From positions 10,666-74,665 of IMG/VR virus record IMGVR_UViG_3300029288_000151: a stretch of 64,000 nucleotides of DNA; one strand, 5' to 3'. The position numbers and the translations under genes are program-made. This document shows positions 2,405 to 60,510 of this stretch, in pieces. The stretch's first letter is position 1. Each line of letters begins with the position of its first letter. The notes below the pieces were generated by a model, which saw only the letters and a program-made list of their open reading frames with translations, searched no databases and had not been told where the DNA came from. The DNA is from a virus. Lineage: Duplodnaviria > Caudoviricetes.

Positions 2405-4678
2405 CTAAGAACCAACAGAGAATTTAAAAGAAATACTGGATTCCATTATGCTAGCCCAATATCCAGTCTTCTGATAATCTTCAAAGAAATCGGCAACTCC
2501 ATTATCGTTGGAATCTGTTATAAAGTCTATTATATTATAAGGACCGCTTGTTGGGTTAATGCAAAGGAACGTTGCTCCATTCAATCCAGCAGCATAATTA
2601 TTGTCGTCGCCCTGTGTTAACTTCCAGCCAAAGGGAATCTTGTATAACTGTTCTGTAACATATTCCCCAAGGAGATAACGAGGAAGCATAATCTTTGCTT
2701 TTATAGTATTACTATAAATTATTCTATTATAGTATTCGCTCCAACAAGAAGCCTGGAACTCTATATACTTAGAAGAGACGACCCAATAAGCTCCAATGTC
2801 GTCAAAATACGGAGGATAAGCTGCTGGATAATATGGATTTGATGGCAGTAAAGCACCAGAGGGATACGTCAATTGACCGCCATTAGTATCGATAGATACT
2901 GGCCTAGTAGGGACATAAGCGCCTGAAGTCCCCAATACTGGGTTGATTGCGTCGCTATCCCATTGATATATAACTACTTTTCTCCCATTGGGATGCGGGC
3001 TAATGGCCCATGATTCTAAATCATAAGTTTGAATCATCTCTTCTTTCCAGCGTTCATAGTCTGCATCTGTCCCATAGGTCACCCAAGAAGGAGGCTCTGG
3101 TAAAAAGTCATCAAGATTAGTGGCTCCCAATAAAGGATCGTCTTTCAAAATTTTATATAAGTAAATATCATCGGCGACAGTAAGTCCTGCAGTGGTATTG
3201 TCTAGATATAGGGTGTCTCCATGAACACAAGATGCCGCAGTCGCATAATAACCCATTGAGTCTGCATCAACAGGAGGCTGGTAATAAGTATACGCTATCC
3301 CCTCTCCATTCGTAACAGAGTATGCTATGCCAATAGAGGATCCCCCTAAGAACCCAAGCGTTGATGGCTGGGAAGAGAAGGTTATCTCTACGTTTGGGAC
3401 AACTGTGCCCGTCGCAGAAGTCACTGTAGCTTGTAATGTTGCCCAATCAGCTCCAACATATATTGGCCCATAGACAAGAGGATTAATAAAAGGAATCGCT
3501 TCTTTTGCGATAGAAAGTTCTATCTTCGCAACCTCAATCTCTTCATGAGTTATACAAACAAACCCCTCATTAAGGGACTGGACAGTAGGACTTACATTAG
3601 CGTCCAGGGCATGGATCTGAGTAGACAGAGCTTCCTCTTCATATTCTACTCTTAATGTAACGTCGTAAGTAGCAACGATATAGTATCCATCCGTAGGGAT
3701 CCCCGTTATAAGGCCGCCAAAGATAATTCGCCCAAGATCCTTATCCAGGAAATAATTAAAGGTTCCGCTTGGATCAGAGGTATAAGAGAAAAGCTCCCAG
3801 AATGTTTCTGTGCGAGTACACTCTGTCCATGTTTGGGTGCTCGTATCTACGGCATAAACCTTTATAGAACTTGTGACGACAGGGAATCTCTTTAAGAAGA
3901 ATACTTGCCATTCAGTATAATCAGACACACCAAGAATATCACCAGAACCCAAGTCTCCATAATAGGTTGGCTCAACTCCTATAGTATATGTGTAATCTGC
4001 ATTCGCTCTTAAGGCGATCGTTCCGAAAGTACTAGTATCGACGACAAACTCTTTCTTCGTCGTATCGATATTGTCCCAAAGAATCTGTTTTCCTGCAGAT
4101 GTTGTTGTATTAAGTTGTTCCCCGTCTTCCCATCTTCCCGTAAAGGAACCTACCTGGCTTAGCCTTACGTCATAACTGATAGCCTTGGTCTCAGGATCTC
4201 TTTTATAAGAAGCGGCTGTAATTGGCTTTCCTGGCTCTATGGAAGAATCCAATACCATATAATTGCGCCCATCGACATTAAGAGAAGGGTCTATGGTCTG
4301 AATCCTGCTATTGTCTCCATAATAAAAGTAATCGGTGCCATGTCTAAAATACCAACCATCATTGATTTCAGGGATCCAATGTCTTTCGTGATTAACAAAA
4401 AACTCATCAATATCAACGACTTCTAAGTCTACCTTAGTATCTCCAACTCCACTATCAAAGTATTCGGCCTCTTGTAGCTTCTGCCTAGAAGCATTTGCAA
4501 GCCTAGGCAAAGAAGGAAGAAGAAGATCGAACGGACTAGCCCATCTCTTGATATCGTATTCCCAACCAGAGGGGATGTCTGTTAGGTGCTCAAACCCCAC
4601 ATAAGGGTCCGCTGTGGCGATTACATAAACCGTCTGAGAGGTAGAGAATCGAATGCTTTGTCTGGTTAGATTGCCCAC
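2405..4678 (-). CDS. Baseplate/tail-associated structural protein with an Ig-like (Big_1-type) segment
   Basis: 757 aa in the baseplate cluster; ATLQATVTSATGTVVPNVEITFS resembles Big_1/invasin Ig strands. Confidence 0.6.
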   Translation of the reverse strand: MGNLTRQSIRFSTSQTVYVIATADPYVGFEHLTDIPSGWEYDIKRWASPFDLLLPSLPRLANASRQKLQEAEYFDSGVGDTKVDLEVVDIDEFFVNHERHWIPEINDGWYFRHGTDYFYYGDNSRIQTIDPSLNVDGRNYMVLDSSIEPGKPITAASYKRDPETKAISYDVRLSQVGSFTGRWEDGEQLNTTTSAGKQILWDNIDTTKKEFVVDTSTFGTIALRANADYTYTIGVEPTYYGDLGSGDILGVSDYTEWQVFFLKRFPVVTSSIKVYAVDTSTQTWTECTRTETFWELFSYTSDPSGTFNYFLDKDLGRIIFGGLITGIPTDGYYIVATYDVTLRVEYEEEALSTQIHALDANVSPTVQSLNEGFVCITHEEIEVAKIELSIAKEAIPFINPLVYGPIYVGADWATLQATVTSATGTVVPNVEITFSSQPSTLGFLGGSSIGIAYSVTNGEGIAYTYYQPPVDADSMGYYATAASCVHGDTLYLDNTTAGLTVADDIYLYKILKDDPLLGATNLDDFLPEPPSWVTYGTDADYERWKEEMIQTYDLESWAISPHPNGRKVVIYQWDSDAINPVLGTSGAYVPTRPVSIDTNGGQLTYPSGALLPSNPYYPAAYPPYFDDIGAYWVVSSKYIEFQASCWSEYYNRIIYSNTIKAKIMLPRYLLGEYVTEQLYKIPFGWKLTQGDDNNYAAGLNGATFLCINPTSGPYNIIDFITDSNDNGVADFFEDYQKTGYWASIMESSISFKFSVGS

Positions 4679-9984: not shown

Positions 9985-12900
9985 TAGAGATTGCCTCCTA
10001 CGTTTGGATCCTGAGAGGCATTAAACCATCCGCCCGCAATGCTATCCAAAATATTCCAATTAATTGTAGCAAGGCTTTCTGAAATGTCTGTTCTGTCGTA
10101 CCCATCTTCAAAATCTTCACTCCATTGCACCCATTGACCCCAAAGATTAGCAAAAGAAGATGAGTATTTACTTGCTGCAGCAATACTTGTAAACGGTTTG
10201 CCCCCAAAATATAGAGGATTCATTGTAACCGGATTCCCTGTCTGGCTATGATGCATCAAGAAGAAAGCACCAATCATCATTCCCGCTTTTCCCATTGCGT
10301 TCATTGTAGAATTTTTACCATATAGAACAGTGTCTTTCATTTTGTCAAACAAGGAGACCTGTGTTGCTTTCTGCCTCGCGGCATCAGAAGAAGAGAGCCA
10401 TAACATTGATATAGTATTAAACATAGAATCAAACCACCCTTTGGTAGCCCAATCGTTAGAGTCAACAACCATGTCTGGAGTTATGATAGAGATAAACCCT
10501 TCTTCTTGATTAAAGATATGAATAACCTGTTCAACTTCTATTGGTCCATACATATCATTTACATTGTCCTGTAAACAGATTATGTCATAGGGCTTTATTG
10601 TCTCTTCGCCAATTAAGACAAGTTCTCCCTTATATGAGTCTTTTAACCCCTCAATCAAAAGACCCTGAGCATACCTTTTCGCCATCATCTCAGTAATACA
10701 AGATGGATATACCGCTTCATATTTTCTAATCATATGATCTGGAATATTATCATTTAGTTTCATCGTATAAGTTCCAGACTCTCCCATCTCCACCATTTCG
10801 GTATATTCCTTCGCCTCTCTTTCATTGCTAGTCTCATCTTTCACATCTTCGTCATTTGAATAACGGACTTCAACAGCATTAAAGGTATTCTGTACCGAAG
10901 TTCTTATCTCATTCTTAAGAATATGGTATTCAGAAGTTGCCATAAAATAATTTCTGAATGGTCGGTATCTACCAAAGATTCTGCCAAGGTAGAAACCTAA
11001 AGACCTATTATCTATGTTGTTCCCACTAGTTATAATAGCTTTATATAAATCTGGATTTATCTTACTAAGAGCTGCCAACTTTTGTTTGGTATTAGGATTG
11101 TTCATTATCTCTTTAAGATTTCCGGAAAGCTTACCATAAGAAGAAATCTGATCTGTCCAAAGAGTAGAAATTATTGATTCTTGTATTGTACAAGCTCGGC
11201 TCCAATAGTTTTGTCCTTTAGGGCCAAAGAACATCGTCATTCTTGGCGAGTGCCCGTATGGAACAGCAAGAGAAACATATCCGGGATGGCGTAACTCATG
11301 CTCTTTAAAAATTTCCCAAGGAGTAATCATTAAAGGGCGATAAGCACAGGCATTATTCCAGACCCGGTCTCCCGCACCAGAATAAACCGTATAAGGAGGA
11401 GGGAAAATATTATCATCCTGAGGCTGGTTTAAAAAGTTATTTTTCTTGAGCATAACATTCATACTCGCTTGCGCCCAAGAATCAAGAGGATTCAGACTAA
11501 GCAAATCAGTGCCATAACCACCAGTTAACTGACTTCTAACTTCTGCTGGATTATATGTTGGATTGAAATCTTGTCTACCAAAGTGCATAACAAATGGCTG
11601 TATGATTGCCGCAGACAAAGCTTGCATAGAAGAATAAAAGGTAACATCCTCTTCAAATGCCCCTACTGTGGACGCTTCAAGCTCTGCCCCGTATCCCTGA
11701 CATAAGATTTCAAGAATCTTCCCATCTTCATTTGGCTCAATCTCAACAATCTGACCAAGAAAAACCGTTTCTAAAACTTCACTATCATTAGCATAGCCGA
11801 GGCGAATTTGTACCTTTACCCCATCCTGCAAGATCATATTGGCAAAAGGATTCTCTCTGCTTGTCTCTGCAAAGAATCCAGTAGCGTCTTCTACTGCTTT
11901 TTCGTTAGCAAGTATCTGATCTTCTGTTTCTCCAAATCTTTTGCGTAATAAAATTCCAGCGACATTCGTCATTCTAATGATAGCAAGATCGGCAGCTACT
12001 TTTCTTGATCTAATAACTCTAATCTCTTGGATAGATGAGTAACTATAGAAGTCATCAAATGCTCTATAATTTTTAGTTCCCTGCTCACTGTCTTCGTCAA
12101 TGAAATAGATTCTAAATGTCGGATAGGCACGGCGCATAGAGATATCTTTCTTGCGCGAGCCGACAGAAAGTTCTGCGATAGAACGGGAAACAAGAGTGGC
12201 CGTATCAATCGTTGTGGCTGGAACAGAAGCAATTTTATTTAATGTTTGCTTTGTCTCTGCTATTTTTGATGTTATTTCTGCCGACGACGAAGACGCAATA
12301 ATTTGGTTGTTATTCTCAGAAGTCCCTTGTAAATCTGACCGATCAGACTCTGCCTCGGGAATATTCCGTTCTCCATTTAATCCACGATCGGTCTCTAAAC
12401 TATCTACATTCGGGCCGACAAGGAACTCTTTTGGAACTTCTACGACTCCGTCCTTTGTAACCGTACCATAGACAGAAGCCTTTATGTTCTCAATAGCCTG
12501 TTTCTTGTCTTGAACACTAAGCTGAGATCGGATTCCTTTATCAAGATAGTTTGTAAGATAAGGACTCATAAGAATTGTAGTATTTAAAAACCCATCAAAA
12601 GCCTGTTCTTCTAGCGTTCCTTGTTTTGCCGACAAGACAGAATACTTACTTAACAAATCAGAAGGAGAAAAAGTAACTGATTTCCCGAACATCCCTGCTG
12701 CAAACTGAACAGTATCGTACATAAAACTATTTACTTGCTGCGCTCGAAGAGCAAACCCTAAATTTATCGTTGCTCCAAGATTATTAAAGACACTGTATTC
12801 TCCACCAGAAAGCCAATTAGAAAAACCATATTCAATTCCAAATTGTTCATTCATATTTATTTTTGTTTCTCTAATTTTTGTCGCATTCACAGAAGCATAA

Positions 12901-42854: not shown

Positions 42855-45800
42855 CTACTCGCAGGTAATCTTTGTCTGCGAGACAATCATATCCCAAGTA
42901 ATCTGTTCGCCAAGAACGCCATTTCTCCTCATGCGGTCGAAAAGCAAAGCCGCTCTATTTTCTTCTTTATCCTGAAGGAATTCTCTCATTCTATTAACAA
43001 GTTCAAAATCAGTTTTTGACAAGCTTACCTTCTGGTCGTTATCTTTATCCGTCTTAATCGTGGGATCGTCAACCATTCCTTCGGGCTCTCTTGCAATCCC
43101 ACTAGTCATTTTATCAATAATCTTACCAAAGTCCACACTGTCAACAAAAGTTTTATAAATTATATCGAAATCTTTTGAATCTGTGAACTCGGCCTTTGCC
43201 TTGTCAAGACTGTCCTGTTTCCCAGTGGCCAGAGAGAGAAGAGCCGCATATTCTGTCTTTACACGACGCAGTTCCTGCCCTATCGTCACGCACTCGTCGA
43301 TAAGAATCTTATGCGAAGAGAACTCGTGCCGAAGCTCGTCGCGCAGGACAGAAACAGTGTCCTGAGAGCTAATAAGCTCCTTCTTCGCTTTGTCTTCTGC
43401 CTCTTTCGCTTCCGTTGCAGCCTTGAGACTGGAAACACACTCAGAGCACTCGCGCTTTACAGTAAGCTTGCGCTCAATCATGGTCGTTTCCACATCGGCA
43501 AACAGAGCCCGAAGCTCATCGTCTGTCAGGTCCTTCGGCTGTTTAACGGAATCAGTTGCGGGAGCAATAGGATCGGGCTGTGTATTTGGAGCCGAATCAC
43601 TGGAACCCGAAGAGCAACCAAGAGCCTTCGCCTTGCGTGCTACACAAGCAAGAATGCTCGTCTTGTTCCCCGGCCCCTTATAGCGGCCAATCAGGCGGCG
43701 AGCCGCTGTTACGTGAGAATTATGGACGAAGACCCCATTAGAGAGGGCAAAGTTATTAGTCCCTTCTACTTCAATGTCATAAACATCTTCTTTTGTGTCA
43801 AGTTTCTCGACGCTCATAACCTTATGGTTATAAAAATCTGCCTGCGTTAGGCTCTTGTCGTTAAGACGAGTTTTCAACCAAGCAAGAGAGATCTGCCCTT
43901 CTTGCCATTTATTTAGTATGGATTCTCGTGTTTCTTTAATTGTCGTCAGATTAAGGGTTAACTTATCAGTCTCGAATCCTGCTTTTTGGAACCATTTCTT
44001 TATCGTGAATCTGTCTATCTTATATTTGTCTTGTAGACTTGAGAAATTCGGATTTTCAAGATAATCACAATACATCTTCTCAAGATCTTGCCCAAAAGCT
44101 GCGGCAAAATAATCTTCTACAAGAGTTTTCGCTAATTCAGTTGGATGTTTGAATTCAGACAGATCCGCTTCATTAAGCCATCTTCTTATTGTAGAAGTTT
44201 CGACCTGTAGTCTCTCTGCAAGAAATTTTACTTCTACCCCAAGTTCCTTTGCAAAATAAATATCAACAAGACTAAGCCCAGAATTACCAATCTCCTCTTC
44301 TGGCCTGTTCCAATCGTAAGTCCTTTTCCCTTTCGAAATCGCATCGGAATGAGCAACAGAAAGAGCTTCATCCCCCAGAATGTGAGCCATCCTATTCTTC
44401 ATGAAGTTAGAACGAGCACGAACCTCTTCTATAGTCCGTGTTCTTTTGTCTTTATTCCCTGCGTCATGCAGTTTATGTAGTTTGCTATGATCTGCGCGAG
44501 AAATATATTCGAGGTTTTTTGGATCGTTGTTCTGTTTGTTCTCGTCGATATGATGAATTAGCTCTTCTTTCTTTGGAACCTGTCCAATGTCCTCGCGAGC
44601 GACCATGTGATGGGTGTATTCCCAATATTTGTACCATGGCTGGTATATCTTCTCATAAACAGCAGCTTGCCCAAACATTTCACTATCTTTGATATACAGA
44701 GGCATCAAAGACTGTTGCTCTTTAAGAGCAGAAGCCTCTACATATTCGAAGTCCCTTGTAAGAAATGGATGGTTTGGTGTACAGATAACAGTTTCGCTGT
44801 TGTCGAGAGTCACTTTAACGACATCTGCGGATACCTTCGCCTTCCATGCCGCAGTTACCTGTGCAGGGACAACTGCTTTCTGTCCCAGACTGAAGCTGTA
44901 GACCCAAACCTCTTGGCCTTCGTTCACTCTGCGAACAAGTTCCTGCATTTCTACTTCTTCGCCATTAAGCAATTTTATTTTCTGTTGGCCAGAAATACAA
45001 CAATCCGGGACAGGGAACGATCTACCCGGCCCACAGAAGGTCTTTTCTCCCAACTTGTTGCGCTGCTCAGAAGAAAGTTTGGCATCTTTCAGAGTTTCTT
45101 CTGATAAGATTCCATCCTTCGCCATGGCCGCCAACTCAACCTCCATCTGAGCATAGACCTCTTCTGCATCTATTGTCTGCCCCTGTGTCTCAAAATCTTC
45201 CAGGGCGTAAACAATATACGTTTTCTCGTCAATCTCCGCTTCGTCCTGCCCAAGATATTTCCCATCTTCCTGTTTTAACGCCATAATTTTCTTGGCGAAA
45301 TCAGCAAGGACAGAATCTTCTGCTTCTGGACGAGCTTCTTTAATGACTTCAAAAACTTTGCTTTCGTCGTCGTTTAGCTCAATGGGGGCACCATCTTTGA
45401 TCTCAATAATCATTCCTGTTGCCTCCTCTGAATCCCGAACTTCCCAAATCATCTGTGTCGGGAAAATCTCTTTATGAACCGGATCTTCTTCTTTAACAGA
45501 ATCGTAAGCGAACCCTTCCACTTCTACTGTAGTAAAAGGATCTGCATCAAAATTAACCAGGCTAAGCTCCTTGAAAAACATATTGCCGGGGATCAGATTA
45601 GCCTTTCTCTCAACTTCAGTGTCCTCGTCTTTGTACGTCTTCCCTGGAATATGTGAGCACATGCCGTCTTCTGGATCGAGCCAGTCTGCAAAACAAATGC
45701 TACAGAAAGCATGATCTGACCCAAAACCTACAGATACAGCATCAAACAGGCCAGACTCCATCTGCTCGATCGTAGTCGGATCAATAATATCGGCACCGAC

Positions 45801-46241
45801 TTTGACGTAGCCGAGTCCGCGCCATCCATCCGCCAGAACGGCTTTGCTTCTTAAGAAGGAGGCCATTGCCCGAACTTGCTTTTTGATTGGAGTCGCTTGA
45901 TCTATTAAAGCAAGAACATTTGGGTCCCCAACCAGATCTTGAGGGACCGTGTCTATATATTGGGCGGAAACGACTTTGCCAACCGGATCTGCATCTGGGT
46001 TATGATGCTTGAGGATCGGCGCACGCTTTCCCTTTGTGAAACTATCCGCGCCAATCCGCATCATGCTTGGCAAGTATGCCCGCTCATTCTTATTGGAAAT
46101 CGCAGAATGAGTTGCCTCAAAATACGTACGAAGTCGCCTTTTGCCGTTAAGAGAAGCGGAATCCTTGAATGTCTTCCACTGCTCTTCTGTCGGGTTTACA
46201 ATCTTATAACAATCTCGGAAAGATATAATTTTATTACTCAT
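42855..46241 (-). CDS. Prohead protease-scaffold fusion with intein (about 701 aa spliced)
   Basis: PILKHH, FDAVSVG, CSIC...CSHIPG and ELSLVN protease motifs; C-terminal coiled coil; Hint insertion. Confidence 0.88.
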   Translation of the reverse strand: MSNKIISFRDCYKIVNPTEEQWKTFKDSASLNGKRRLRTYFEATHSAISNKNERAYLPSMMRIGADSFTKGKRAPILKHHNPDADPVGKVVSAQYIDTVPQDLVGDPNVLALIDQATPIKKQVRAMASFLRSKAVLADGWRGLGYVKVGADIIDPTTIEQMESGLFDAVSVGFGSDHAFCSICFADWLDPEDGMCSHIPGKTYKDEDTEVERKANLIPGNMFFKELSLVNFDADPFTTVEVEGFAYDSVKEEDPVHKEIFPTQMIWEVRDSEEATGMIIEIKDGAPIELNDDESKVFEVIKEARPEAEDSVLADFAKKIMALKQEDGKYLGQDEAEIDEKTYIVYALEDFETQGQTIDAEEVYAQMEVELAAMAKDGILSEETLKDAKLSSEQRNKLGEKTFCGPGRSFPVPDCCISGQQKIKLLNGEEVEMQELVRRVNEGQEVWVYSFSLGQKAVVPAQVTAAWKAKVSADVVKVTLDNSETVICTPNHPFLTRDFEYVEASALKEQQSLMPLYIKDSEMFGQAAVYEKIYQPWYKYWEYTHHMVAREDIGQVPKKEELIHHIDENKQNNDPKNLEYISRADHSKLHKLHDAGNKDKRTRTIEEVRARSNFMKNRMAHILGDEALSVAHSDAISKGKRTYDWNRPEEEIGNSGLSLVDIYFAKELGVEVKFLAERLQVETSTIRRWLNEADLSEFKHPTELAKTLVEDYFAAAFGQDLEKMYCDYLENPNFSSLQDKYKIDRFTIKKWFQKAGFETDKLTLNLTTIKETRESILNKWQEGQISLAWLKTRLNDKSLTQADFYNHKVMSVEKLDTKEDVYDIEVEGTNNFALSNGVFVHNSHVTAARRLIGRYKGPGNKTSILACVARKAKALGCSSGSSDSAPNTQPDPIAPATDSVKQPKDLTDDELRALFADVETTMIERKLTVKRECSECVSSLKAATEAKEAEDKAKKELISSQDTVSVLRDELRHEFSSHKILIDECVTIGQELRRVKTEYAALLSLATGKQDSLDKAKAEFTDSKDFDIIYKTFVDSVDFGKIIDKMTSGIAREPEGMVDDPTIKTDKDNDQKVSLSKTDFELVNRMREFLQDKEENRAALLFDRMRRNGVLGEQITWDMIVSQTKITCE
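43719..44999 (-). mobile_element. Intein (427 aa) carrying an HNH endonuclease and HTH-like segments
   Basis: PDC|CISGQQKIKLLNG ... CTPNHPF ... HHMVA...IHHIDENKQNNDPKNL...HSKLH ... GVFVHN|SHV. Confidence 0.95.
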
Positions 46242-52612: not shown

Positions 52613-54562
52613 CTAAATGTTACTCCGGATTCCCAGCCTGCCGCGCTTTTTCTTTCTAAGTCGTTGCTGCCTTTTCTCTTCTTCTATCCCTTCCATATCA
52701 TATTCCCAGCCAGGACGAGAAGAACCAACCATCTGATTTGGGCTGACCCTGGCTGGCAGATGAGCACCGAATAATTCCATCGCAGGACTTTCTAATTTGG
52801 TTTGTAGATTTGTCCTATTATCTCCCAAATCTCTAGATCTATTAGACTCTACGTTATTTGAGACTTTCTGTCTAGGGCTCAAAGATGACAAAGCAGCCAC
52901 AATTGGATCACTTTGTTTCATCCATCCAAATTCTATATAAAATCCTACAATCGCCAAATTTAAAGCATCAAGTTTATGATCTTTGACGCGCCCATCAAGC
53001 CCACCATAAACTGGCGTTCCAGTTGGAGAAATCCTTTCTATGATGTAGTTGCGAATCTGTTTTTCCAATTCTTTGTCCGCCGAAGAAATTCTCATCCTGT
53101 CTTGCTCAAAAGCTCTGATGGAGGCATTAACCATAAACGGTTTAGCTGGGACTTTCCTCTCTTCACGAGTAACAGGATCTTTAGACAGGATAGACGCTCC
53201 AGAATCGTATTTCCTGAGGATATCTAACAGTCTAGCAGTATCAGGATCTCCGCCTTTCCTACGTTCCTCGTAACTCATTTTCCTGAGCAGCTCATAATTT
53301 GAACTACCATTACCACTATCTGCATAAATAATAGACGGTCTCCATTTCTTATTAAGATCAACAAGGGCTTGAACGCCGTTCAACTGTGTAAACTCAGAAC
53401 TACCCACAGAGACAGCCTCTACTACCTGAAAATAATTTCCGGATATATTCTGGCCCAAGACTACAAGCTCGGCTCCGTGTTTTTCGTTCCAGTCCGCGCC
53501 AATGGAGTACCGCCACCCATAAGTTGGAGATTGATCTTTATACAGATAAGACCGCAAAGACCTCTCTACATATGCTGGCCGATAAACACCTTCTTCTGAG
53601 AACCCCCATTGTGCCTCTAATTCTTGAAGCCACTGAGACTCTGTATAATTAATCTTATCTTTTTCTACCTCGCGCCAGTGAGGTAATACTCTATAACTAT
53701 AGAAAAATTCCCTGTATCTAGGGTCGTCTTCACAGATCTTATAATAGATGCTCTTAAACCCCGTCGGCGTACCGAAGCCAGTAAAAGTGACTCGACCTGT
53801 CGTTTGCAGAATTGGGAACAGGCCACCAACAACAGCTTGTTCGTCTATATAAGCAAGCTCTTCTGCAAATATATGGTCGGCCGAACTACCACGCACAGAC
53901 ATGCCTTCTGTTTTGCCGCGCGTGCCAAGAGCAAACCCCTTAATGCTTGACCCGTTCTTTAAAACAATCTCATAGATAGGAGAAGAGATGTCTTTCTCCA
54001 CGGAAGTAGCCAATAGTGGGTTTCGATACAAGAAGCTGCGAATTCTCTTGAAAATTTCTTCAGCATGGATCTTCTGTGGAGCGGCGACAACGATTCTCTG
54101 ATTGTCTTTAGTGGTAGCAAGGAATGTAATGGATACCGATACTAATTCCGTTTTTCCGCTTCTACGGGCGATTCTTAAAGCTTTTCGGGCACTTGAACAA
54201 CGCATTACTTCTTCTTGATAATGGCGCGGAATCCAAGGATCCCCATTTGGATGTGTTAACCATTTCTGCGCCCAGAGAACTGGATCCATCAATTCGTTTG
54301 CCTGCTTCCATTCTTCGGCAGAAAATAAAGGTTTAAGTTTCAGGTCAATTGGGTCCTTGGGTACGCCAGCACAATCTACAATGAATCTATTCTTCAGTGA
54401 TTTGCCAAATTCATCAGTAGCGTTTTGAAACTTTTTAATTTGGCGCCGAACACAAGCAACACATTGAGGTCGGACTTCCTCGATCTTAAACGGAAGAGAG
54501 ATCTTCGCTAAGTCAGATAAATCTGAGGTGTCGTATAATTCTTTGTCGTCTTCTTGAGCCAT
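52613..54562 (-). CDS. terL: Terminase large subunit
   Basis: Q motif PRHYQ, Walker A ARRSGKT, Walker B HIFAEE, coupling motif FGTP, nuclease acidic residues IGADW, YADS, DHKLDA. Confidence 0.93.
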   Translation of the reverse strand: MAQEDDKELYDTSDLSDLAKISLPFKIEEVRPQCVACVRRQIKKFQNATDEFGKSLKNRFIVDCAGVPKDPIDLKLKPLFSAEEWKQANELMDPVLWAQKWLTHPNGDPWIPRHYQEEVMRCSSARKALRIARRSGKTELVSVSITFLATTKDNQRIVVAAPQKIHAEEIFKRIRSFLYRNPLLATSVEKDISSPIYEIVLKNGSSIKGFALGTRGKTEGMSVRGSSADHIFAEELAYIDEQAVVGGLFPILQTTGRVTFTGFGTPTGFKSIYYKICEDDPRYREFFYSYRVLPHWREVEKDKINYTESQWLQELEAQWGFSEEGVYRPAYVERSLRSYLYKDQSPTYGWRYSIGADWNEKHGAELVVLGQNISGNYFQVVEAVSVGSSEFTQLNGVQALVDLNKKWRPSIIYADSGNGSSNYELLRKMSYEERRKGGDPDTARLLDILRKYDSGASILSKDPVTREERKVPAKPFMVNASIRAFEQDRMRISSADKELEKQIRNYIIERISPTGTPVYGGLDGRVKDHKLDALNLAIVGFYIEFGWMKQSDPIVAALSSLSPRQKVSNNVESNRSRDLGDNRTNLQTKLESPAMELFGAHLPARVSPNQMVGSSRPGWEYDMEGIEEEKRQQRLRKKKRGRLGIRSNI

Positions 54563-54567
54563 AAGAA

Positions 54568-55305
54568 CTACCTGTGGAGCATCATGCCTTCTTGGCCGAG
54601 CCCGGATCGGGCACTCATCATTCCTTGATTCATCAATTGTAGAGACATCTGTCTCATCGTAGAAGCCTTAGCACCCGTAAAAGCTGTGTTATCGCCAACC
54701 CAATTGAACTTTCTAGATCTCCTAGAGGTTTCAACAACTTTGTCCAGCTGGCCTACTGTACCACGAACAAGAACGTCTCCAAGGGCATAGCCGCCGAAAG
54801 AACCGACTAGCCAACCAACGCCTGCCCCAAGCGCAGTCCCAATTCCAGGCAAGATAGCAGATCCTATTCCAGCGCCTACAGACCTACCTACGTTGCTCCC
54901 AACGCGCCATCCCACGTTACCAGCCATAGCGCCAGCAGCAGCTGTTGCTTTTTCTTTTGGGCCGCCTGACTCAGCAAAAGCAGCGTAAGCCACAAAAGCA
55001 GATCCTAATGCTGCGCCACCAATCCCACCGCCCTTGCCTCCTAATTTACCTTTAGCAGCCAACCCACGCTCTTTTCCTATAAATTCTCCAACTCTTGGGT
55101 TTTTTGCGGCCATCCGTTCAAGCCGTTCAAAGTATTCACTCGATCCTCTATGAGTAGAACCCCATGGTCTTGTCCCCTGTGGAGAAAAAGCATAAGCTGC
55201 CAGCCCTCCTTGGGCGAAATTACCAGCAAAAGCCTGTTGCCCAAAAGAGTAAAGGCCACTCTCTAGCTTACCAACTTTTGATTTTGATTCTTGTAAAAAA
55301 GACAC
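54568..55305 (-). CDS. Glycine-zipper membrane-type protein (candidate ejection protein)
   Basis: Long GxxxG runs (GAGIGSAILPGIGTALGAGVGWLVG); GTG start. Confidence 0.65.
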   Translation of the reverse strand: MSFLQESKSKVGKLESGLYSFGQQAFAGNFAQGGLAAYAFSPQGTRPWGSTHRGSSEYFERLERMAAKNPRVGEFIGKERGLAAKGKLGGKGGGIGGAALGSAFVAYAAFAESGGPKEKATAAAGAMAGNVGWRVGSNVGRSVGAGIGSAILPGIGTALGAGVGWLVGSFGGYALGDVLVRGTVGQLDKVVETSRRSRKFNWVGDNTAFTGAKASTMRQMSLQLMNQGMMSARSGLGQEGMMLHR

Positions 55306-55306
55306 T

Positions 55307-55891
55307 CTATCTTCCGCCTATGCCGAATTTTCTTCTAAATCTATCTTTTAGCTCCGATCCAGACGCCTCCAGTCTAGATAGATTTTTAATCATCGCTGGC
55401 CTTGACCTCATAGATGCGTTCGCGGCTGCAGAAGACAAACCTAGATATCCGGCCAAAGCCACTCCTCTAGTAGAACGAGAAAGGCTGCTCATTCTTGAGT
55501 GGATTCCATTCCTTATCTCGCTCATAAAAGAAGATCTTGCTGCGCCCTGTTGAGCCGAACCTGGAAATCTTTTAGCAAGCTCTCTGCGCCCCCAACTCTT
55601 AGACATCGGCCTTATCCCGCTAGCCTGAAGGCCAGCAAATCTTTGTCTGGTCGCAGAACCAGCAGCACCAAAACGGGCCATACTAGCTCCTTTGCCTACC
55701 GCTCGCATGCCCGCGTATCCGCCTATGCCTCCGATGCCAGCGCCAATTGCTGCACCATAAAGTCGATTGCCAGGATCTGCGTTATAGGCTCCCAGCCCAG
55801 CGCCTACCACAAGGCCAGCCCCACCAGTTCTTAACGCATTCCTTCTGGCAAAACCAGAGATGCCTCTTAATACATTACCAGCACCCGGCAT
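55307..55891 (-). CDS. Glycine-zipper, Arg-rich protein (candidate ejection protein)
   Basis: GAGLVVGAGLG...GAAIGAGIGGIGG; AGGAGG RBS. Confidence 0.65.
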   Translation of the reverse strand: MPGAGNVLRGISGFARRNALRTGGAGLVVGAGLGAYNADPGNRLYGAAIGAGIGGIGGYAGMRAVGKGASMARFGAAGSATRQRFAGLQASGIRPMSKSWGRRELAKRFPGSAQQGAARSSFMSEIRNGIHSRMSSLSRSTRGVALAGYLGLSSAAANASMRSRPAMIKNLSRLEASGSELKDRFRRKFGIGGR

Positions 55892-55936: not shown

Positions 55937-58639
55937 TTAGCGCTTTGTGGCATAAGACCTTTTCGCTGCGCTGACACTGTGCATCTTTGATCCTTTGCTG
56001 GCATTGATAAACGGCACAGCATTAACCCCTTGCGATATCTTCCTTAGCGATTCTCCTGGGTTATTCGCGTTCTTAACAACATTAGAAAGACTTACTCCTG
56101 AAGCTCTTGGTGCCGGAAGACTTGGGATAATATCACTAATCATTCCTCCTATCTCTTTCTCAAAACTAGAGAACTCGGGGAACATCAACTTCTTAATCCT
56201 CTCTTCTTCCAAAAGACGAGCTTTTTCTAGCGCAACAAGTTCTTCTCCCGCTTCGGCACCCCAAAGAGATTGTTCTGGCATCATGGCTTTGTGCCTAGCC
56301 ATGGCCTCTTCTAGTTTCTTCGCGTTCTCTCGTCTCGCTAGAATCACATTAGCGAAATGCTCTGCATTCTTATAAGGCATTCTGTCTGGAGTCAGAGGAA
56401 CAAGATCCTCCTCAGCTTTTGCTCCTCTTGCCCTCTTGATGATTCCAATCCCTGTCTCTTGTTGCGCCGAGAACAAAACAGTATCCGCTTTCTCTGCCGC
56501 CCGCCGAGCCGCCTTCTCTTTGGCCGCCGGGAGAACTCGGGCGACAAGTTCCTTCTCGCTCTTAATCGTCCATTTTTGCCAAGGTCCTTTCCCTGAAAGA
56601 TTAACAGCCTGATTGCCCCGACCCGGTCGGAAGAACTGGACGAGCCTATCCGCAAAGCCAGAGCCGAAATCAGAATTATTCTTAACCGCTAACGCGCCGA
56701 GAGTGTTCTCTGCAAGAGGATGAATCCCCTCTAAAGAAGATGGAGTATATTCTGCAAGCCCCGACATATCATCAGAGAGACCCTTGATCTGCCGCTGCAT
56801 TCTTTCTGCTGCTGTGAAAGGGTCTATCTTGTTCTGCGCCGACCCAAAGTCAATCCATGATGTTCTTCCTGATGTTGGGTCGTACATCACATTTCTGCGA
56901 CTTATGTCTTCGTTCAGGAATCCTTTCTTTGACAGGGCAAAAGCTTGCTCTTCTACATCTTTTAGAACAGACTTTGGAAGTTTTATCCCGGCCTCTTTGA
57001 ATTTTTCGAGTGTTTGGCCAGGCATGTACTCCATGAAGAGTTTGCCTTCGTGCATCCCATAAGTGGCTGGCATAATATCGCCATCTAAAGATCGCAACGC
57101 CCCGTATTCATTTTCTAATGTTTTTTGGCCAAAAGAGTAGAGCCGCTCTCCTTGTGGGAGAGCTTTGAGTTCTTCTAATGTCTCTTTCATGACATATTGG
57201 AACTTCTCTCCTCCGACCTCTGCTTCATGCAGGAAAGCCCTTCCGAACCCACCATGACCAATCTCTCTTATCCTGCGACCACTCTTCATCGCATCTATAA
57301 AAGACGTGCTCTCTAGCATAGAAGCGATTGAGCCATTTTTGCTTCCAAAGAATTTTTCGGCAAGCCTTTTTGCCGGATCCCAACGAGAAGCGAAATCCTT
57401 TTTAAACTCAGTTAGTTTATCACGGGTTTCTGCTGCAAAAGTTCCACTATTGGGCATGCCTGAGAACTTTTGACCCACAAAGGCATTCGGGCCAAACCTT
57501 CTCCTGAGCGCGCGGCCAAGACGTCTTGAAGTGGCAACCTCTTCTCCGGTAAGCTCTCTCTCTTCGTCGCCAAATCCTTGTAGATAAGTTCCATATGCGC
57601 CGAGCATAAGGTTTCTGGAAAGCCTTGTAAGCTCGGTAAAAGTATTAAAGGTTATTGGCTGCCCGGTCGCTTCTGAAGCCTCATGGATGGCCTTGTAGCG
57701 CGCCAGACTCCAAATGCCTTCGTCTCTGAAACGAGCCTGCTCTTCTGCTCCGGCTGCAGCCTCACGACTGATTATGTCTCCCGATTTCTTGCCGAAAGGC
57801 AAAGCTGCGACCATGCCTTCTCTTAACAGGCTAAGAGAAAGATTTTCTCCTTCGTCGCCGACTAAAACACCAAGACTTCTGCCGTATGTTTGGTCCGAGC
57901 CAATAAGAAGCCTGAGGTCTCCTTGCTCGTCTATTAACCGACTAAGCCTTTCCGCCGCTTCTTCCCCGCCCGGCTGGCTTTGCCAGATACGGACTTCTTC
58001 CATTGGGTCGGCGGCATGACCGGCTGTTTCGGGGGCATCAATACCTGATAGACGGACAGAGATAGACGGAGAAAGTAAATTGGTTAGTCCCCGGCGCTTA
58101 AGGAGAATAGTATCTGCGTCTTCTGCTGTTATCTTGAAATCAGAGAGGCGGACTTCTTTGAGCCCAGTGGTCTTGGCTAAGCCTTCAACTCCAGCCAAGT
58201 TTGGAGCGAAGAGATCAGTGCCCCTGAACTGGCCCAGCTGAGCTTGCGAAGCAGCTTGCTTTTTATTCAGCCGCGCCTCAAGGGCAGACCATTCATCAGA
58301 ATCATCAATTACATTTTCTCTGAATCTCAGGACTTCAGGATCTATAGGGACACCAAGGAGAGAGGTTGGCAATCCTCTGTAGCCAGAGCCAAAGTCAGAG
58401 CCAGCCCGAACTTCTGCCGCGCCCAAGCCGGTTGAGTCCGGATGGATGCCTTCTATGGTATTGTATTGGTCATCATAACCGCCAGAAACACGGTCCCATT
58501 CCTTCTTCTTCTCTTTCTTCTTGCTTGTTTCTTCGGACAGGAACTGGATAAACTCATCTAGGATAGTGCTCTCACCCGAAACGACCTCAGTTGTCGCCTC
58601 CGGCGCCTTAAGTATGGCGTCTAATAAGGTTTGACCCAA
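55937..58639 (-). CDS. Multidomain protein: thermonuclease (SNase-like) plus protein kinase, with repeated linker motifs
   Basis: SNase: DADT, VRLSGIDAPE, TYGR, ARFRDEGIW. Kinase: IGHGGFG, VMK, ENE, NEDISRRN, DFG. Confidence 0.85.
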   Translation of the reverse strand: MGQTLLDAILKAPEATTEVVSGESTILDEFIQFLSEETSKKKEKKKEWDRVSGGYDDQYNTIEGIHPDSTGLGAAEVRAGSDFGSGYRGLPTSLLGVPIDPEVLRFRENVIDDSDEWSALEARLNKKQAASQAQLGQFRGTDLFAPNLAGVEGLAKTTGLKEVRLSDFKITAEDADTILLKRRGLTNLLSPSISVRLSGIDAPETAGHAADPMEEVRIWQSQPGGEEAAERLSRLIDEQGDLRLLIGSDQTYGRSLGVLVGDEGENLSLSLLREGMVAALPFGKKSGDIISREAAAGAEEQARFRDEGIWSLARYKAIHEASEATGQPITFNTFTELTRLSRNLMLGAYGTYLQGFGDEERELTGEEVATSRRLGRALRRRFGPNAFVGQKFSGMPNSGTFAAETRDKLTEFKKDFASRWDPAKRLAEKFFGSKNGSIASMLESTSFIDAMKSGRRIREIGHGGFGRAFLHEAEVGGEKFQYVMKETLEELKALPQGERLYSFGQKTLENEYGALRSLDGDIMPATYGMHEGKLFMEYMPGQTLEKFKEAGIKLPKSVLKDVEEQAFALSKKGFLNEDISRRNVMYDPTSGRTSWIDFGSAQNKIDPFTAAERMQRQIKGLSDDMSGLAEYTPSSLEGIHPLAENTLGALAVKNNSDFGSGFADRLVQFFRPGRGNQAVNLSGKGPWQKWTIKSEKELVARVLPAAKEKAARRAAEKADTVLFSAQQETGIGIIKRARGAKAEEDLVPLTPDRMPYKNAEHFANVILARRENAKKLEEAMARHKAMMPEQSLWGAEAGEELVALEKARLLEEERIKKLMFPEFSSFEKEIGGMISDIIPSLPAPRASGVSLSNVVKNANNPGESLRKISQGVNAVPFINASKGSKMHSVSAAKRSYATKR

Positions 58640-58652
58640 TAACCATCATTCC

Positions 58653-59450
58653 TTAGGGGATAGCTTCCCAGTCGGCCTCAATAACCTTAGAATCTGTTTT
58701 GGCTTCTTCTACTATTTTACCAAGTTCTTTAGTAGAAGTAGCTTTCTGCATCTTCTCAATTGTCTTGCGCAATTCGGCCAAATGGGTGGAAACGTCTGCA
58801 CTGCTCTTCTGCTTGAGAGCAGCGGCTTTCTTGTACTGTTCTTTCCTTGTGACCGCAAAGGACTCAAGGATCTGCAACCTACGCTTGTTGAGCTTTTCCT
58901 TGATCTCCAGTAAAGGATGAGGGATTGTGCTCTCCATTACCTTCTCTTCGCTTTCTGTCCTTATCGTAGTCAACAATCTTGGTCCGTCTTCTTTGTCGCC
59001 GGATAAAGCCACATTGGCCCGATAGCCAAGGAGGTCTATCTCGACCAATTCATTAACCAGAACCATCTCATAGGTATTTTGCGGATCAACATCGAGGCTC
59101 TGAACATATTCCTTTGTCTGAACCCGGATGTAATTGGACTCCAGAGGGCATGCTCTCCCGACGGGCCACCGTTCTGTTATCGGACACCTAACTCCCATCG
59201 GGCACTTATGCGGCGAAGCACAGAGCATCGGCACGAAGGCAGAGACGCCTGTCTTCATCCGGCGCACATGATTCATGAACCTTTGTGCTTCCTGAGGCGT
59301 CATCTTGATGTCACTGTAATCGTCTAGATCTATATCAAGGAAATCAAACATCTTGGTTCTGGATAAAGAACCATCCTGTTTAATCAAGGTGCCATCAAGC
59401 TTTATAATGGCGACATCATCCATCTTGCCCGAATTAACTCCACCCATCAA
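58653..59450 (-). CDS. Four-Cys (possible zinc-binding) helical protein; possible small terminase
   Basis: C-x5-C-x5-C-x11-C, then a helical Lys/Glu-rich part; nearest plausible TerS-sized gene upstream of terL (inference only). Confidence 0.4.
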   Translation of the reverse strand: MMGGVNSGKMDDVAIIKLDGTLIKQDGSLSRTKMFDFLDIDLDDYSDIKMTPQEAQRFMNHVRRMKTGVSAFVPMLCASPHKCPMGVRCPITERWPVGRACPLESNYIRVQTKEYVQSLDVDPQNTYEMVLVNELVEIDLLGYRANVALSGDKEDGPRLLTTIRTESEEKVMESTIPHPLLEIKEKLNKRRLQILESFAVTRKEQYKKAAALKQKSSADVSTHLAELRKTIEKMQKATSTKELGKIVEEAKTDSKVIEADWEAIP

Positions 59451-59887
59451 AAGGCCTCCAGTGCTATAGTTACCGTGTCTCCGATCTTGTATTCAGTCAT
59501 CTTTCTCTCGTATTTTCCAAATTCTTCCATAAGAGAAGAGTTATCCACCTTCCCATAATCAAAAAGCGAACAAAAGAAAAGCTTTTCCCGGATCTTCTTC
59601 TGCTCCCATGTCAGGCGTGGGCGACAACCTTCTGGAATTTTAGAAAATTTACGATAATATCTTTCCGATTCTGTATACTCTTCTTCTGTTTCATCCGCTC
59701 CGCCAAAATAAGTAGGCGAGATATAAGCAGTGTTAGGCTGACACCAGCTTCTGTCCTCGCATGAGAGGAACAGTTGTCTCGCCTCTTCTCTTCTAGCTTC
59801 TTCGTGCTTTGTAAACTGTTCTTCGTCCAGGATTATCCAATCCCATACGCCCGCTTCTGTTTTATCCCATATCTGATAACGAGTCAT
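59447..59887 (-). CDS. Hypothetical protein
   Basis: 146 aa, coupled to neighbours. Confidence 0.7.
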   Translation of the reverse strand: MTRYQIWDKTEAGVWDWIILDEEQFTKHEEARREEARQLFLSCEDRSWCQPNTAYISPTYFGGADETEEEYTESERYYRKFSKIPEGCRPRLTWEQKKIREKLFFCSLFDYGKVDNSSLMEEFGKYERKMTEYKIGDTVTIALEAF

Positions 59888-59888
59888 G

Positions 59889-60209
59889 CTACTTCACCTG
59901 TTGGCAAAACAAGATTCGGTGCAGAGAGATATCACTAAGCACTCCTGTAAGCGCAGGCTCAATGAAGAAATCATCGTATTGTACGCCGCATAATGCCCAA
60001 TCAAACCAATGATCGGGATCCTTCTCGGGGACCAAGAACAGGCGAAACTCTGGGCCTCCTTTAAAAGGATAAAAATAACCACGGCCTCCGAAACCCTTCC
60101 TGGCTTCCTCAAAGTTTGGATAGATGGCCACAAGATAGTCTAGGAAGGTATTCTCTTCCCGAGCTACGCAAAACCAAGCATAACTTTTCCCCGGTTCAAA
60201 AGAGATCAT
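59889..60209 (-). CDS. Hypothetical protein
   Basis: 106 aa, 1-nt overlap with the upstream gene. Confidence 0.65.
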   Translation of the reverse strand: MISFEPGKSYAWFCVAREENTFLDYLVAIYPNFEEARKGFGGRGYFYPFKGGPEFRLFLVPEKDPDHWFDWALCGVQYDDFFIEPALTGVLSDISLHRILFCQQVK

Positions 60210-60502: not shown

Positions 60503-60510
60503 CTTTACTC

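Follow-up and report, generated by a model that had tools for sequence, protein, structure and literature searches.

The window analysed here is a 64,000-nucleotide (nt) stretch of DNA from an uncultured giant phage (IMG/VR record IMGVR_UViG_3300029288_000151, positions 10,666 to 74,665; Duplodnaviria, Caudoviricetes). Translation of its reverse strand gives P0001, an open reading frame (ORF) of 900 amino acids (aa) at window positions 55937-58639, which holds a SNase module and a truncated protein-kinase module. A peptide of about 30 residues stands before the nuclease, between the nuclease and the kinase, and after the kinase. This junction peptide is previously undescribed and strongly conserved, and it recurs between the modules of many related multi-module proteins. 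The coordinates of the modules, of the three copies of the peptide and of the neighbouring genes are given in Table 1.

Table 1. Parts of P0001, listed from the N-terminus, and neighbouring genes in the window.
Feature	Coordinates	Strand	Basis
P0001, multi-module ("polyvalent") protein, 900 aa	55937..58639	-	ORF list, translation; TTG start, stop at 55937-55939
N-terminal 55 aa, predicted helix H23-52, low confidence	58475..58639	-	AlphaFold, pLDDT 42-63
Junction peptide copy 1, aa 56-89, core YNTIEGIHP...SDFGSGY	58373..58474	-	Regular expression and HMM
SNase module, aa 90-385, predicted staphylococcal-nuclease fold with flanking helices	57485..58372	-	Pfam, AlphaFold, Foldseek
Junction peptide copy 2, aa 390-421, diverged kinase-leader variant KFSGMPNSGTFAAETR..LTEFKKDFASRWD	57377..57472	-	HMM, positional homology
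Truncated protein-kinase module, aa 422-627, Bud32/RIO-like minimal kinase	56759..57376	-	Pfam, AlphaFold, Foldseek
Junction peptide copy 3, aa 632-663, LEGIHP...SDFGSGF	56651..56746	-	Regular expression and HMM
C-terminal region, aa 664-900, low-confidence helices, basic tail at end	55940..56650	-	AlphaFold, alignment
g265, upstream neighbour, four invariant Cys, gp112 homologue	58653..59450	-	BLASTP, locus comparison
g194, glycine-zipper protein	55307-55891	-	Glycine-rich sequence
g245, glycine-zipper protein	54568-55305	-	Weak Pfam Gly-zipper match, PHROG tape-measure-like matches
Large terminase (TerL), downstream anchor of the gene order	52613..54562	-	PHROG/Pfam
Prohead protease/scaffold homologue with HNH intein, 1128-aa ORF	42855..46241	-	BLASTP, intein Pfam matches

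The first-pass annotation of this DNA had reported a repeated EGIHP...SDFGSG element in P0001. Its two like copies are as quoted there, with coordinates right to within a few bases. The cores, of the form EGIHP...SDFGSG[YF], occupy aa 63-87 and aa 637-662 and lie within the strings NTIEGIHPDSTGLGAAEVRAGSDFGSGY (copy 1; aa 60-87, nt 58379-58462) and SSLEGIHPLAENTLGALAVKNNSDFGSGF (copy 3; aa 634-662, nt 56654-56740). Local alignment of copy 1 with copy 3 gave a score of 74, which was reached by 0 of 5000 shuffles, and the likeness of the two is therefore beyond chance. Neither EGIHP nor SDFGSG occurs again in the six frames of the window, and the 74.6-kb virus record has no motif match besides those in P0001.

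A degenerate copy had also been proposed between the nuclease and the kinase, and this proposal was borne out. The string FSGMPNSG...DFASRW lies at aa 392-420 (about nt 57380-57466). A hidden Markov model (HMM) of the motif, built without P0001 and its near-twin P0002, scored it at 9.9 bits (E 5e-5), with copy 1 at 33.5 bits (E 2e-12) and copy 3 at 11.1 bits (E 2e-5; 44.5 bits in another HMM search). The middle copy retains the G-x-A...R...DF(G/A)S(G/R)W half of the motif. Among relatives there are 12 close variants of it, and this kinase-leader variant, KF(S/P)(A/G)MPNxG(T/S)xAAxxRxxLTEFKxDFASRWDxx(K/R)x(I/L)A, stands directly before the kinase module. P0007 and P0008 have a canonical copy at the same place before the kinase, running on as ...DFGSGWDxxRxxAK, and P0027 has a hybrid, EGLHP followed by an AMPN...DFAS stretch. 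Because of these intermediates, the sequence comparison indicates that the middle copy of P0001 is a true but diverged derivative of the canonical peptide.

The nuclease and kinase named in the first-pass annotation are both real domains. Pfam PF00565 (SNase) matches aa 195-311 (nt 57707-58057) with E 5e-12, the body of the module (aa 90-385) is predicted by AlphaFold2 with a predicted local distance difference test (pLDDT) score above 90, and Foldseek pairs the model with the nuclease of S. aureus (staphylococcal nuclease) at a template-modelling (TM) score of ~0.8. R196, D201, E204, R254 and the EDADT stretch, which we take to be active-site positions from what is known of the SNase family, are invariant or nearly so among homologues. 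The kinase body (aa 420-627, ~208 aa) is also predicted with pLDDT above 90. Pfam Pkinase matches aa 457-603 with E 1e-3, over profile positions 4-147 of 263 only. Foldseek returned protein kinases including Rio1, with ~165 aligned columns against kinases of 270-290 aa, and the module is therefore a kinase of the truncated kind. D578, N583, D597 and G599, presumably active-site positions by analogy with the kinase family, are invariant among close homologues. At the other end of the protein, the last ~30 aa (nt 55940-56029) form a basic tail of roughly the form ...AVGxGxxxAHNxG(R/K)xH.... This tail is present in about half of the family whatever the modules (112/240 with a loose pattern), its A880 and H887 are invariant among close homologues (alignment A1), and it is 47% identical even in the swapped P0002 described below. 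The tail is a candidate capsid-anchoring or targeting peptide.

All three copies of the peptide are predicted to lie between folded modules, in disordered linkers. We modeled the whole of P0001 with AlphaFold2 from a 32-sequence alignment, and aa 50-385 separately from a cleaner alignment of 58 sequences. In the full model each motif site falls in a low-confidence linker (pLDDT <50) with one short helix, predicted to be amphipathic (aa 72-80, 401-409 and 642-651). The partial model has a mean pLDDT of 91 and exceeds 94 from aa 90 on, yet copy 1 stays at 43-63 (35-56 in the full model). AlphaFold thus places the motif outside folded domains, so that the possibility raised in the first-pass annotation, that the repeat belongs to a folded domain, does not find support in the models.

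Searching a database for relatives of P0001 brought up 31 homologues of 768-1550 aa. Their architecture varies, and SNase, ABC1/Pkinase, PolB-type exonuclease and RNase H-like domains appear in changing combinations along with some modules that are unknown; the peptide recurs 1-4 times in many of them. An alignment query yielded 80 IMG/VR loci (a single-protein query returned none), and the first set contained 150 distinct motif instances. The first-pass annotation had suggested a profile search for differing cargo between copies. Such a search was run with profile A3, a 72-sequence motif alignment, against 1.84 billion representative proteins. It gave 716 representative clusters at E<=1e-3, 136 of them at E<=1e-30, with 1-7 copies per protein. 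Of the 716 clusters, the best 150 were analysed further, and 615 motif instances were compiled from 240 non-redundant proteins.

The wider consensus from the iterated HMM is FSG(K/R)DDxYNTIEGLxHxGxAxxxRKxxTDFGS(G/P)(W/Y)xG, about 30 residues, to which the subclade of the window adds a 2-residue insertion that gives HPGSxGLGA. Over the 615 instances the frequencies of the principal residues are N 0.95, G 0.94, G 0.94, R 0.89, T 0.82, F 0.99, G 0.98 and S 0.99, and that of the Glu in IEGL is 0.77. The motif is not covered by any Pfam, PHROGs or NCBIfam family, and its profile gave one chance-level match only against PDB sequences. A search of the ESM Atlas for look-alikes of aa 50-95 gave no usable match. 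Neither tblastn with the whole of P0001 or with the motif plus SNase module against 50,697 cultured-phage records, nor megablast of 24 kb against cultured-phage records, found a homologue. Literature searches for motif fragments returned nothing relevant, and those on SNase, ejection proteins and jumbo phages yielded no description of the junction peptide. Two points concern the relatives themselves. The P0023 homologue is labelled by NCBI as derived from a Candidatus Bathyarchaeota metagenome-assembled genome, which could be a hint of the host or a binning artefact. The SNase regions of P0018 and of locus L081 match positions ~1103-1264 of phrog_8809, a family of 2317 positions and unknown function, and some reference phages may therefore carry giant SNase-bearing proteins.

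The peptide behaves as a separator and not as a tag carried by each module, since it usually stands between modules and is seldom terminal. Among the 240 proteins the median start of the first copy is aa 387, and copies within the first 100 aa occur in only 8%. The stretch behind the last copy has a median length of 332 aa, and modules without the motif normally occupy both termini. The commonest architecture has a single internal copy. Where there are several, their spacing has a median of 244 aa. Spacings below ~62 aa make up 10% and look like empty slots. Some tandem copies are only 14-60 aa apart, with no room for a domain (P0012 aa 892-988, L009 aa 307-407 and others), and these may be scars of deleted cassettes or deliberate multiples. 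The internal position of the motif, together with its confinement to one ORF in each complete genome (below), disfavours a general packaging or sorting signal, which the first-pass annotation had offered as one meaning of the repeat.

The modules flanking the peptide are exchanged, duplicated, deleted and reordered, and the breakpoints of similarity fall at the peptide. Cutting at the motif divided 94 proteins into 58 segment families and the full 240 into 147, of which 99 are singletons. When SNase and kinase content was scored in the 240 proteins with in-house jackhmmer profiles, 77 had the SNase only, 62 had only the kinase, and 32 had neither. The six SNase-negative proteins that were also scanned with Pfam gave no SNase match there. 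The SNase precedes the kinase in 54 proteins, and the order is reversed in 15. Where BLAST similarity ends inside a protein, the end falls within 15 aa of a motif in 63% of cases at identity >=50% (n=501) and in 100% at identity >=80% (n=10), compared with ~15% for random positions. The motif is thus present in the homologues while the domains around it differ, and the claim of the first-pass annotation that it delimits exchangeable cassettes is supported by the 615 junction instances, the permuted order and the breakpoints, and by the following exchange. The contig that encodes P0002 was recovered from the metagenome collection as locus L084. P0001 and P0002 are ~99.5% identical to aa 392 and 15-30% identical thereafter. 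At the DNA level the flanks are 95-96% identical, the identity collapses at the 5' edge of the middle motif, and it resumes at 81% at the stop codon and is back to ~95% in g245. The pair is a clean swap between near-isogenic contigs, beginning at the middle copy.

Selection acts on the peptide and not on DNA homology, since the codons of the copies are no more alike within a gene than between genes. Copies 1 and 3 of the window use different codons at most of their identical residues. Across the loci, identical residues have the same codon at a frequency of 0.44 within genes and 0.40 between genes. These values led us to reject DNA-level gene conversion between copies. They also disfavour a recombination handle, put forward in the first-pass annotation, as the reason for the conservation. 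The window and L084 do share an identical island of 17 nt in the otherwise diverged middle motif, but similarity to L084 already breaks off at the 5' edge of the motif, before that island is reached.

As judged by homology, the carriers are a lineage of uncultured phages of 160-204 kb related to Bacillus phage 0305phi8-36. In four complete relatives of that size and in a further one that is 83% complete, every motif match lies in a single multi-module ORF, which in the four complete genomes is always placed between a gp112-like gene and the terminase. In nearly all 80 loci the genes run in the order g265, multi-module gene, (small glycine-zipper genes), g245, TerL, g148b, g631, portal. g265 is upstream of the multi-module gene in 65/80 loci, often overlapping it, and TerL is downstream in 76/80. 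g265 has invariant C77, C83, C89 and C101 followed by a helical tail, matches gp112 of 0305phi8-36 by BLASTP (E 7e-14), and gave no PDB match by profile and no family match. The region 54568..55891, between the multi-module gene and TerL, holds g194 and g245. The latter occurs in 34/80 loci and has a weak BLASTP link to gp115 of 0305phi8-36. g194 is 76% identical to its L084 counterpart over the first 134 aa and has a different C-terminus. Glycine-zipper proteins are common among membrane-active ejection proteins. In the kinase-bearing clade, 1-2 small and highly variable glycine-zipper ORFs stand between the multi-module gene and g245/TerL (for example L002 9923-10369, L003 8671-9458 and L009 3536-3994).

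Further along, aa 4-239 of the 1128-aa protease/scaffold ORF match gp123 of 0305phi8-36, annotated as "protease/scaffold" (E 2e-17), and BLASTP also links TerL, the portal and the major capsid protein to their 0305phi8-36 counterparts. The head module of that phage (gp112-gp125) therefore has homologues here of gp112, gp115 (weak), TerL, portal, protease/scaffold and major capsid protein in the same order. The portal gene has a weak MuF-like match (E 2e-3) that falls below the Pfam cut-off. What differs is the multi-module gene: in the ~20-kb terminase-capsid regions of 0305phi8-36 and of Acinetobacter phage ME3 there is neither a SNase-kinase protein nor the motif. Between gp112 and TerL, 0305phi8-36 has gp113, gp114 and gp116, which are virion proteins by mass spectrometry according to the record annotation; these three are not mentioned in the paper on its deletion mutants (PMC3357382).

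The family invites comparison with polyvalent proteins as they are presented in the sections of PMC5512222 (Iyer, Burroughs, Anand, de Souza, Aravind 2017) that we consulted. Like them, members of the P0001 family combine several unrelated enzymatic or effector domains in one polypeptide, are highly variable in architecture (147 segment families in 240 proteins) and are encoded by phages, among virion genes. A hallmark of polyvalent-protein kinases in those sections is the absence of the C-terminal subdomain, and the kinase of P0001 likewise lacks it. On the sequence features of multiple unrelated domains, variable architecture and a truncated kinase, and as far as these sections go, P0001 fits the polyvalent-protein concept. 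There are two differences. The MuF, metallopeptidase and ParB-like hallmarks were not detected in P0001, for which SNase and Pkinase are the only Pfam matches at E<=1. Furthermore, one ~30-aa peptide stands at nearly every junction of the P0001 family, whereas PMC5512222 uses the word "linker" 0 times, and no conserved inter-domain peptide was seen in the sections consulted.

We tentatively interpret P0001 as a polyvalent protein delivered by the virion, and the peptide as its site of maturation cleavage or recognition, a reading that we place somewhat short of an even chance. P0001 would be packaged in the head and delivered with the DNA as a string of effectors. Packaging in the head is suggested by the location of the gene among head and glycine-zipper genes beside the terminase, in the slot that virion proteins occupy in 0305phi8-36. 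The peptide would be recognised by a trans-acting partner, most likely a maturation protease of the HK97-gp4 type made by the phage, for which the gene at 42855..46241 is the candidate. This protease would cut the polyprotein into separate enzymes (the nuclease, the kinase and others) inside the capsid, with the almost invariant F-G-S as the best candidate for the recognition or scissile core. With the same peptide bounding every module, any in-frame recombinant would still be processable, and we propose that modules may be freely shuffled for this reason.

Prohead proteases offer a precedent for part of this scheme. T4 gp21, phiKZ gp175 and SPN3US gp245 remove capsid-targeting sequences or propeptides, which are found on internal and ejection proteins of large myoviruses and are tied to head maturation of the HK97/T4 type (PMC5694885). 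The junction peptide resembles these propeptides as a short conserved peptide of a large-phage protein, with a protease homologue encoded in the window. However, those propeptides stand at the N-terminus of many different head proteins of the same phage and close with a short x-x-E site, whereas the junction peptide is internal and belongs to one protein per genome that does not share it with the head proteins. Several further points weigh against cleavage by a head protease. Both the cleavage and the virion packaging are steps that we infer, and none of the cultured-phage records searched has the family. Thirty conserved residues greatly exceed the usual length of a prohead-protease site. In IEGL the Glu is conserved to only 77%, unlike that of a strict x-x-E site, and a cut after Glu of the T4/phiKZ type is therefore unlikely. 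A head protease that recognises the whole peptide would lead one to expect the peptide in other head proteins, and it is not seen there, being confined to one ORF in the four complete genomes. The MuF and metallopeptidase domains that Pfam did not find in P0001 count in the same direction, and the predicted disorder of the peptide has AlphaFold as its single source.

The alternatives differ in what the peptide would be recognised by, if by anything. It may be a docking element that folds on binding an assembly partner (the capsid interior, the portal, the scaffold or the Cys4 protein g265) and leaves the protein uncut, with the effect that the modules are tethered inside the prohead or ordered for ejection. 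Conservation in a region that is predicted to be disordered but to hold a short amphipathic helix is what binding motifs typically show, the length of the peptide suits binding more than a protease site, several copies would add avidity, and g265 is a constant neighbour. Yet g265, g245 and the head genes are also present in 0305phi8-36 and ME3, which have no motif in the ~20-kb regions examined, so that no partner specific to the motif was found; moreover, the commonest architecture has one internal copy and termini that usually lack one, and the conserved C-terminal tail is a better candidate for an anchor. We regard docking as unlikely, though as a serious alternative. It is less likely still that the peptide acts in the host, either as a linear motif that binds a host hub or membrane to target the modules or as a site of release by a host protease. 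The modules are plausible anti-host enzymes, since the active site of the SNase seems to be intact and the kinase motifs are too, and the junction motif is restricted to this one effector protein. The consulted sections of PMC5512222 propose that polyvalent proteins act after injection and suggest their release inside the host cell. Near-invariance over 716 clusters from very diverse environmental phages would, however, need an equally invariant host partner, and the peptide shows no likeness to a known host-binding motif and no PDB or Pfam match.

If the peptide were cut without a general head protease, it might be a self-contained portable "cut-here" element, either autoproteolytic or the tag of a dedicated high-specificity protease; we consider this very unlikely. 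Self-processing proper, by autoproteolysis at the Asn or at the G-S bond or by separation of modules on the nascent chain, would dispense with a separate protease altogether. The extreme invariance of the N (0.95) and of F-G-S (0.98-0.99) resembles that of self-cleaving sites, and a cis-acting element would explain better than a general protease site why the motif occurs only in the protein to be processed. Against this, autoproteolysis at known sites depends on a folded scaffold, which AlphaFold does not predict at the peptide, the sequence resembles no known self-cleaving module, and a skip of the 2A kind has no known precedent in bacteria, so that we see a slim chance for it. Slimmer again is the chance that the motif serves mainly as a handle for recombination at the DNA level, or only as a passive flexible hinge, and that the peptide has no specific function. 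The coincidence of the breakpoints with the motif and the 17-nt island shared with L084 could be read in this way. The codon comparisons, the differences between the copies of the window at most synonymous sites and the breakpoint upstream of the island argue against the handle, and a passive hinge would not hold seven positions at 0.89-0.99 over 615 instances. Of the rival explanations, this pair is the least consistent with the motif frequencies and the codon data.

Two further systems share features with the P0001 family. In polymorphic toxins (Rhs, CdiA, MuF-toxins) a conserved peptide likewise marks the point of exchange, and in P0002, compared with P0001, everything downstream of a copy is replaced. 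Unlike those toxins, the family has several internal junctions instead of one, its protein is phage-borne, and no immunity gene was seen, the small downstream genes being glycine-zipper proteins. g194 was considered as an immunity gene and rejected, as it is a glycine-zipper protein that is only partly swapped. Orphan modules were not seen in the 8-kb flanks. The junction motif is not known to be related in sequence to the Rhs and CdiA demarcation motifs. Viral polyproteins (for example picornavirus-like ones) also have a recurring junction between modules and a virus-encoded protease, and the window encodes a prohead-protease homologue; the junction of P0001 is far longer, and its processing is putative. 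No polyprotein of this kind is known to be established for tailed phages.

The peptide bears on the way in which multi-enzyme polyvalent proteins, a known kind of phage protein, have their modules joined, exchanged and perhaps released. With this one signature, carried by at least 716 protein clusters, module boundaries can be predicted in proteins that for the most part resist annotation. The signature suggests a shared step of recognition or processing, and it would account for the tolerance of in-frame module shuffling. It would also allow a systematic catalogue of unknown anti-host effector modules, of which the 99 singleton segment families give an idea. If the peptide is indeed a tag for cleavage or docking, it could serve to bring foreign proteins into the capsids of large phages or to divide engineered polyproteins. 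Should the "cut-here" version hold, one phage gene would be a plug-and-play polyprotein with modules freed in the capsid or the host. For tailed phages such a use of polyproteins has yet to be established, and the peptide would in that case be a modular processing tag ready for use.

Some observations on the neighbouring DNA stand apart from the peptide. The terminase ORFs of several relatives have 1000-1430 aa compared with 649 aa in the window (L010 12961-17232, L017 11118-14774, L075 11876-16177 and L002 11136-14393), and the long ones probably carry inteins that the terminase of the window lacks. In L025 two ORFs that by eye resemble homing endonucleases of the GIY-YIG and LAGLIDADG types (1558-2337 and 2937-3839) lie between the multi-module gene and g245, and the multi-module ORF of this locus ends 45 aa past a motif copy. 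Finally, L084 shows indels of small genes: it lacks 760 bp that correspond to window positions 59449-60209, with their ORFs of 146 aa and 106 aa, and it has an unrelated insert of ~500 bp between window positions 60507 and 60508, in surrounding DNA that is 96% identical.

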